Positions 1 to 350 of a stretch of 350 bases of DNA are shown piece after piece. How positions within the stretch are numbered: position 1 is the first letter of the stretch; every line of letters begins with the position of its first letter. Below the pieces are notes generated by a model. It was not told the origin of the DNA and searched no databases. It saw only the letters and a list, made by a program, of their open reading frames with translations. Where the stretch lies: the NCBI RefSeq assembly GCF_003334255.1, contig NZ_QOWU01000258.1; one strand, given 5' to 3'. Source of the DNA: Escherichia coli (GTDB taxonomy: Bacteria; Pseudomonadota; Gammaproteobacteria; Enterobacterales; Enterobacteriaceae). The position numbers and the translations under genes are program-made.

Positions 1-24
1 GCAAACTGCTCCGGAGGCAACCAT
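1..24 (-). CDS. Probable 5' end of a downstream gene (partial, continues beyond window position 1); start codon overlaps the stop of the upstream ORF (TAATG)
   Basis: Minus strand reads CAG AGG CTG TAA TGG TTG CCT CCG GAG CAG TTT GC. The ATG at 24..22 shares its A with the TAA stop. The frame M-V-A-S-G-A-V-C is open to the window edge. AGAGG lies 5 nt upstream of the ATG. Only 8 codons are visible, so this is an inference; an alternative start in a different frame at 58..56 is also possible. Confidence 0.3.
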
Positions 25-287
25 TACAGCCTCTGTAACGGATTATCAGCCCTGGCATCTTCCGACGGCACCTCCTGCCGCCCCCACGCCCTGCTGTATA
101 CCCCGGTACCGCAGCGTGGGCAGCACTTTTCCCCCTCATAATCTTCGTCACACATCACACAAAACCACTTTCTCACCTTCACCGTATAATCCGGAACCGT
201 CATGCCCTGCAGATGCAAACGACGGGCCTCTTTCTCTGCCGGGTCAAGCCAGGTACATCGCAGCAGGATTTTTTCAGCGACAGTCAT
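24..287 (-). CDS. Hypothetical small cysteine-rich protein, putative zinc-ribbon/zinc-binding; 87 aa from first in-window ATG, possibly N-terminally longer with start beyond position 350
   Basis: Supplied six-frame ORF, re-derived by hand: ATG at 287..285, TAA stop at 26..24, no internal stops. Six Cys in 87 aa, five of them clustered as C43-x2-C46-x8-C55-C56-x2-C59 (CVMCDEDYEGEKCCPRC), followed by a GTG motif. No + strand ORF competes. The same frame is open for 21 more codons upstream (288..350), and no Shine-Dalgarno precedes the ATG (minus-strand upstream sequence TTTGAACATGACCAG), so the start is uncertain. Confidence 0.72.
   Translation of the reverse strand: MTVAEKILLRCTWLDPAEKEARRLHLQGMTVPDYTVKVRKWFCVMCDEDYEGEKCCPRCGTGVYSRAWGRQEVPSEDARADNPLQRL
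30..34 (-). promoter_or_regulatory. Candidate Shine-Dalgarno (AGAGG) for the downstream overlapping start at 24..22
   Basis: Minus-strand AGAGG at 34..30 is followed by a 5-nt spacer (CTGTA) and then ATG at 24..22. The spacing is canonical, but the motif is embedded in the last codons (Q-R-L) of the upstream ORF, so it could be coincidental. Confidence 0.25.
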
Positions 288-350
288 CTGGTCATGTTCA
301 AACCACGGTGGTTGTCCGTCATTGCCCCGCTGAAGTGTTAACGGGCATCC

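Follow-up and report, generated by a model that had tools for sequence, protein, structure and literature searches.

A DUF7828/Zn_ribbon_11 protein encoded next to a Rep-like gene in Escherichia coli genomic islands and its possible role as an accessory partner

The window analyzed here, a stretch of 350 nucleotides of E. coli DNA, contains a single long minus-strand frame, which is open from position 350 at the right edge down to a TAA stop codon at positions 24 to 26. This frame (24 to 350, minus strand) represents the C-terminal 108 codons, plus the stop, of a 144-codon gene whose product is identical to WP_001221615.1, named in RefSeq "zinc-ribbon domain-containing protein"; the window covers residues 37 to 144, and the first 36 codons lie beyond position 350. 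The identical gene is found in E. coli Nissle 1917 (CIW80_RS16675; L001 12024 to 12458, minus strand). The first-pass annotation had described a small protein of 87 aa, corresponding to an open reading frame (ORF) listed at 24 to 287 on the minus strand, from the ATG at 285 to 287. However, the gene has 144 codons in Nissle 1917, and therefore the 87-aa ORF begins at an internal methionine codon, Met58. The true start was placed at Met1 of the 144-aa protein because the match to the Pfam domain DUF7828 (residues 4 to 89) spans Met58, because the homologues align from residue 1, and because a strong AGGAGG Shine-Dalgarno sequence directly precedes Met1. The product is thus a two-domain protein, with DUF7828 followed by a Zn_ribbon_11 domain, whose N terminus falls outside the window.

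The comparison of E. coli alleles gave a pN/pS ratio of 0.08 to 0.14 for the 144-codon gene, which indicates a functional coding gene under purifying selection. Two plus-strand ORFs of 42 to 43 aa (202 to 333 and 213 to 341) lie antisense to it and were rejected, no support for them having been found. The scans of the operon region with Rfam and for promoters and terminators returned nothing above background. The protein ends with an acidic tail (residues 129 to 144; positions 27 to 74, minus strand), which is modeled at a pLDDT of 62 to 64 and differs between alleles. In some of them the tail following the ribbon is replaced, as in E. coli HS (L017 2976 to 3386), where the protein ends with YSREGGLQEGNWKDRN, compared with YSRAWGRQEVPSEDARADNPLQRL in the allele considered here, and many E. 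coli matches end about 48 to 50 nt short of the 3' end of the gene.

Retranslation of positions 111 to 161 on the minus strand yields CVMCDEDYEGEKCCPRC, followed by GTGVYSR, in agreement with the cysteine cluster previously read at residues 43 to 59 of the 87-aa ORF. The cluster belongs to a Zn_ribbon_11 domain (PF11682, formerly DUF3279) formed by residues 93 to 128, VKVRKWFCVMCDEDYEGEKCCPRCGTGVYSRAWGRQ, at positions 75 to 182 of the minus strand; the Pfam HMM matches the 144-aa protein with an E value of 1.7e-18 (66.4 bits), over model positions 1 to 36 of 37. The family, left unnamed in the first-pass annotation, is described in Pfam as "Probable zinc-ribbon," and the RefSeq name of the protein already mentions the zinc ribbon.

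Cysteine conservation was counted over all 205 domains matched by the family HMM, with no motif-based selection and in the numbering of the 144-aa protein. The four putative ligands, all on the minus strand, are C100 (159 to 161; Cys in 124/128), C103 (150 to 152; 118/120), C113 (120 to 122; 110/112), and C116 (111 to 113; 107/107). The invariance of the same four positions in our 41-sequence alignment was discounted, that alignment having been picked with a Cys-motif regular expression. When homologues devoid of the conserved cysteines were sought, the four ligands proved to be kept in 97 to 100% of the domains, and the few members without one of them look like frameshifted or truncated copies. 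The CxxC-x8-CCxxC pattern initially proposed was right as to the two CxxC pairs, but not as to the spacing, which is CxxC-x9-CxxC and constant across the aligned relatives. In fact, the first cysteine of the CC pair, C112 (123 to 125, minus strand; residue 55 of the 87-aa ORF), is a Cys in only 41/112 homologues, the others having Y (35), F (13), H (11), and also L, Q, or S. The spacer residues Y107, G109, and K111 are conserved as well, and the homologues share the consensus W-x-C-x2-C-x3-[YF]-x-G-x-[KR]-x-C-x2-C-x2-G. Thus, the CC pair and the acidic spacer, previously singled out as unusual, do occur in this allele, but both are lineage-specific features that the homologues do not conserve. 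Judged from its sequence conservation, the cluster is far more than a chance occurrence.

The N-terminal domain, DUF7828 (PF25165, residues 4 to 89), was matched with an E value of 9.3e-31 over model positions 2 to 86 of 87, and its residues 37 to 89 are encoded in the window (192 to 350, minus strand). In particular, the column counts revealed a near-invariant W-F-E-H motif at residues 52 to 55 (294 to 305, minus strand), whose last residue, H55 (294 to 296, minus strand), is kept in 158/163 sequences, and a cysteine, C68 (255 to 257, minus strand), kept in 140/151. Two further near-invariant cysteines, C33 (144/150) and C36 (143/148), are located outside the window. C33, C36, H55, and C68 could form a probable second metal site, of the CCHC type, in this domain. 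A 238-aa relative (P0072) contains two tandem DUF7828-like N-terminal domains followed by a single Zn_ribbon_11 domain, and it looks like a fusion between the N-terminal domain of a paralogue (ZnA, described below) and the protein studied here (ZnB).

The AlphaFold2 model obtained from 41 sequences, which superseded a run based on 8 sequences (pLDDT of 66), has a mean pLDDT of 87.7, rising to about 95 over residues 101 to 120. Strands 97 to 100 and 105 to 108 bracket the first CxxC, and strand 122 to 124 follows the second one; as modeled, the two CxxC knuckles are placed on a small three-stranded beta unit, an arrangement resembling that of a zinc ribbon. The zinc-ribbon reading of the first-pass annotation is supported by the family match, by the conservation of the four cysteines, and by the topology predicted in a confident structural model. 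On the grounds of pattern, conservation, and predicted topology, we infer that C100, C103, C113, and C116 constitute the C4 metal site of a small zinc ribbon.

A different nature of the cluster was also considered, namely, that it binds iron in a rubredoxin-like redox site, forms disulfides, or is otherwise no structural zinc site. The second knuckle, C-P-R-C-G, resembles the C-P-x-C-G of rubredoxins, and rubredoxins were indeed among the weak matches, both in the profile search (E = 2.1) and with Foldseek (E = 3.9 to 5). However, these matches are not significant, the residues other than Cys in the CPxCG-like stretch vary among the homologues, and the neighboring genes are related to DNA mobility and not to redox reactions; in addition, the protein is cytoplasmic, with no evident signal peptide, which makes stable disulfides unlikely. 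Taken together, these observations render such a reading very improbable. More generally, Foldseek found no match below an E value of 1 in the PDB, the top matches being weak and consisting of small zinc domains, and searching the PDB by sequence, starting either from the protein alone or from the 41-sequence profile, brought up nothing beyond insignificant matches driven by cysteines, such as RPB9 (E = 0.057). No solved structure in the PDB search and no experiment in the accessible literature was found for any member of the family.

Both Pfam families, DUF7828 and Zn_ribbon_11, were matched by 41/41 diverse relatives. The DNA of the window has matches in 3,427 of the 5,426 complete E. coli genomes, with many chromosomes being 100% identical, and the complete gene is present in 3,368 of them (about 62%); thousands of E. 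coli genomes have an annotation for the identical protein. The family is nonetheless small, given that a profile search against 1.84 billion cluster representatives retrieved only 264 clusters at E values of ≤0.001. The matches in AFDB50 are named from E. coli, Salmonella, Klebsiella, Serratia, Citrobacter, Enterobacter, Pectobacterium, Budvicia, Cedecea, and Moellerella and, judged by these names, the family is restricted to Enterobacterales. Many of the UniProt relatives (e.g., the group of B7MMF4 and A0A403JX91) are labeled "DNA-directed RNA polymerase, beta subunit/140 kD subunit," and one is labeled "Competence protein." We rejected the identity with the RNA polymerase beta subunit: the labeled proteins are only 114 to 173 aa long and Pfam recognizes in them only DUF7828 and Zn_ribbon_11, so that the label is evidently a propagated misannotation, as is "Competence protein." The accessible literature contained nothing on Zn_ribbon_11 (PF11682, DUF3279), on DUF7828, or on an inovirus Gp2 protein paired with a zinc ribbon.

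The first-pass annotation had mentioned small phage or island proteins in connection with such motifs. The gene resides in chromosomal islands and large plasmids, and no DNA or tblastn match for it was obtained among 50,697 phage records. For the zinc-ribbon proteins, nothing significant emerged from PHROGs (best E = 0.018) or from PADLOC (best E = 0.063, PDC-S64), and NCBIfam recognized neither the protein nor its paralogue nor the Gp2-like neighbor described below. In IMG/VR, searched with an 8-sequence alignment, two near-identical contigs (L014 and L015) carry the gene at 98 to 100% identity, and L015 has the same order as the island, Gp2-ZnA-ZnB; they are probably island DNA classed as viral, given that the deposited phage genomes contain no homologue.

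In Nissle 1917, three genes run in the same direction and code, in this order, for an inovirus Gp2 family protein (YagK/YfjJ, 189 aa), ZnA, and ZnB, the last being the protein studied here. ZnA (WP_000270962.1, "putative zinc ribbon protein"; L001 12446 to 12847, minus strand) is a paralogue of 133 aa, located just past the right edge of the window and 31% identical to ZnB (E = 2e-15). The end of the ZnA gene overlaps the start of the ZnB gene by 13 nt (L001 12446 to 12458), and the AGGAGG Shine-Dalgarno sequence of ZnB sits within the 3' end of ZnA. The same 13-nt overlap was detected in a Klebsiella plasmid (L012 7001 to 7013), in L005 (489 to 501), and in L016, and it spans E. coli strains, Klebsiella, and one metagenome contig; its recurrence suggests translational coupling and perhaps the formation of a heterodimer. 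In E. coli HS, an IS110 element is inserted between the two genes.

Downstream of ZnB in Nissle 1917, a complete IS66 element (tnpA/B/C; L001 9510 to 11669) lies about 355 nt past the stop codon of the gene, with positions 1 to 23 of the window being the start of the spacer, and beyond it are a gene for a phytase-like esterase, insertion sequence remnants, and the fec operon. Upstream, we found genes for Hha, an AlpA-like helix-turn-helix (HTH) protein, a YeeP-like GTPase, Ag43, and DUF932, together with antirestriction genes.

The comparison of the neighborhoods across loci, proposed in the first-pass annotation as a search for conserved partners, revealed a constant neighbor: a YagK/YfjJ-like gene is encoded shortly upstream, in the same orientation, in 9/9 loci with enough flanking sequence (L001, L006, L008, L009, L010, L011, L012, L013, and L015), which derive from metagenomes, isolate genomes, and a Klebsiella IncFIB/IncHI1B plasmid (L012). 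An AlpA gene is adjacent in most of the loci. The zinc-ribbon gene is part of a backbone module that is conserved in SRL/CP4-type islands and in some large plasmids of Enterobacterales; this module is composed of the YagK/YfjJ inovirus Gp2 protein, usually AlpA, and then one or two zinc-ribbon proteins. In K-12, YagK/YfjJ are retained in the islands CP4-6 and CP4-57, which contain no zinc-ribbon gene. YagN, YagM, and YfjM had been candidates for K-12 homologues and were rejected, none being found in CP4-6, CP4-44, or CP4-57.

The genes placed directly after the zinc-ribbon gene vary from locus to locus. Gabija-like OLD-TOPRIM and UvrD genes follow the module in L011 (9641 to 12968), an HNH/ScoMcrA-like gene follows it in L005 (2407 to 3279), and in K-12 yfjJ is followed, at the equivalent position, by abpB/abpA (L004 9352 to 13154) and also by rnlAB; this position looks like a cargo or defense hotspot of the island class. 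In strain PK-F-10132, an 85-nt fragment 100% identical to the 3' end of the gene (NZ_CM148383.1, 1901556 to 1901640) overlaps or adjoins a BREX pglX annotation and is probably a remnant from cargo replacement. The onset of variable cargo immediately after the gene, and the presence of abpAB and rnlAB at the corresponding K-12 position, might suggest that the zinc-ribbon protein is an accessory or sensor of the adjoining antiphage defense cargo, or else an island-borne antidefense factor. We consider this improbable: the cargo changes between loci while the zinc-ribbon gene stays with the Rep/AlpA backbone, the region downstream in Nissle and in the SRL-type islands holds just IS66 and the phytase-like gene, no phage homologues exist among the records searched, and the best PADLOC match falls short of significance.

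The constant neighbor, the Gp2-like protein, matches YagK_YfjJ_C (E = 1.1e-47) and REP_ORF2-G2P (E = 4.7e-5), and a histidine-hydrophobic-histidine motif (H-Y-H or H-F-H) with a downstream Y-x-x-K is present in all the Gp2-like copies examined, namely, those at L001 13107 to 13676 (minus strand), L008 2557 to 3120, L009 2193 to 2768, L010 6463 to 7095, L011 6817 to 7467, and L012 5343 to 5912. The copy in L010 (210 aa) has no Pfam match on record and is clearly homologous. The HUH and YxxK motifs are hallmarks of the HUH rolling-circle Rep endonucleases, and the Gp2-like neighbors look like uncharacterized rolling-circle Rep or relaxase-like enzymes of the island backbone. The search of the literature on YagK/YfjJ found no functional data. 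In the Klebsiella plasmid, a second inovirus-type Gp2 gene (L012 7493 to 8059) comes right after the pair of zinc-ribbon genes; it is devoid of the HUH histidines (CKMVLLLN) and is followed by a DUF2913 gene.

One relative links the two protein types in a single chain. P0175 (454 aa; L006 2797 to 4161), which comes from a single short read-assembled contig, starts with DUF7828 and Zn_ribbon_11 and continues with a stretch of about 320 residues that shows homology to the neighboring YagK-like protein (E = 1.6e-23). Its YagK-like part reads YFLHALFFF where the others have H-Y-H or H-F-H, and its HUH motif may be degenerate. A 466-aa relative from Serratia oryzae in AFDB may be a similar fusion, judged by length alone. 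A fusion of this kind is a classic indication that two proteins are functionally linked, in this case the zinc-ribbon protein and the YagK-like, Rep-like protein.

It is possible to hypothesize, on the basis of the family assignment, the conserved cysteines, the purifying selection on the gene, its synteny, and a single gene fusion, that the zinc-ribbon protein is a zinc-stabilized accessory partner of the Rep-like protein in SRL/CP4-type islands, a reading that we regard as reasonably probable, its metal binding, its partnership, and its DNA-processing role being the parts that are inferred. According to this hypothesis, zinc would stabilize a pair of small modules connected through a helix (residues 73 to 85) and a flexible linker, each chain binding two zinc ions, one at the C4 site and the other at the CCHC site. 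The protein would act as an adaptor, probably as a ZnA/ZnB pair, which would bind the Rep-like protein, its DNA target, or both, and support the DNA transaction that this protein carries out for the island, whether replication, mobilization, or control of excision. Two observations restrain this picture. The members of the family are near neutral in charge (median pI of about 7) and show no electrostatic signature of a DNA binder, which counts against DNA binding; moreover, the K-12 islands retaining YagK/YfjJ without zinc-ribbon genes imply that the partnership is not obligatory, at least in decayed islands.

The same neighborhood lends itself to another interpretation, according to which the protein is a zinc-finger regulator in its own right, perhaps a transcription factor or a cofactor that acts with AlpA/Hha on the excision of the island or on the expression of its cargo, and its proximity to the Rep-like gene reflects only the shared backbone. 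AlpA is directly upstream of the zinc-ribbon gene in L009, L010, L011, and L012, the AlpA-like HTH gene and Hha are nearby in E. coli, and small zinc ribbons are common in regulators. However, the P0175 fusion joins the protein to a YagK-like domain, pointing to the Rep-like protein and not to AlpA, no regulator family was matched in NCBIfam or Pfam, and neither a recognizable DNA-binding HTH nor a charge other than near neutral is present. We consequently deem the regulator interpretation unlikely, and each of the three alternatives discussed, namely, an iron or disulfide site, a defense accessory, and a regulator, has less support than the role as a partner of the Rep-like protein.

The partner role could also be conceived in a stronger form, in which a YagK/YfjJ-type HUH endonuclease driving the replication or mobilization of the island would strictly require ZnA/ZnB as its specificity or loading subunit, with the fusion as the single-chain version of this complex. 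We put this forward as a speculative and rather doubtful extension; if true, it would explain how the "cryptic" SRL/CP4-type islands move. As a sequence feature, the cysteine cluster adds little, because Pfam already includes the domain and RefSeq already names this very protein as containing a zinc ribbon: its identification is correct but ordinary, concerning an already cataloged and very common E. coli island protein. The wider interest resides in the distribution and setting of the gene: about 62% of the complete E. coli genomes have it, the selection on it is purifying, and it shows tight linkage with a Rep-like (inovirus gpII-like) gene and with AlpA in the backbone of islands that carry virulence, iron uptake, and antiphage cargo. 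If the pair were a cofactor of the Rep-like enzyme, it would help explain the replication or transfer of an abundant island class.

With regard to known systems, the gene order of the Nissle locus matches that of the SRL pathogenicity island of Shigella flexneri YSH6000, where the orf34-orf41 region comprises a phytase-like esterase, IS66 (three ORFs), orf38, and a YfjJ-like inovirus Gp2 protein, together with Hha, an AlpA/Vis-like regulator, and the fec operon nearby (PMC6980539). There, orf38 was published as having "no similarity" (PMC6980539), and it corresponds to the zinc-ribbon gene by position only. In a broad class of genomic islands of Pseudomonas, Gp2-like, AlpA, RadC, and HTH genes have been indicated as proposed or probable core functions (bioRxiv 10.1101/2024.08.29.610337).

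At the level of the protein, WP_001221615.1 is a direct member of Zn_ribbon_11 and DUF7828, with nothing different in kind, and its allele is distinguished by the extra, nonconserved cysteine beside the third ligand, by the acidic spacer, and by the acidic tail. With the classical zinc ribbons, such as Nop10, the C-terminal ribbon of TFIIS/RPB9, and the ribosomal zinc-ribbon proteins, and with the C-terminal zinc domain of Pirh2, the Zn_ribbon_11 domain would share, as modeled, two CxxC knuckles on short beta hairpins, a size of about 30 to 35 residues in all, and a predicted C4 ligation. The DUF7828 domain weakly resembles the N-terminal domain of CoiA (PF25164), with which it shares a CxxC ... 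aromatic-x-H pattern: CoiA_N was weakly matched by 10/41 members (best E = 1.3e-3), by 0/41 at E values of ≤0.001, and by the query itself at an E value of 0.39, below significance, while DUF7830 was weakly matched by 8/41. We take this as a resemblance only. Unlike CoiA, the zinc-ribbon protein has no PD-(D/E)XK nuclease domain after DUF7828, and CoiA functions in a different context, the natural transformation of Gram-positive bacteria (PMC1189080).
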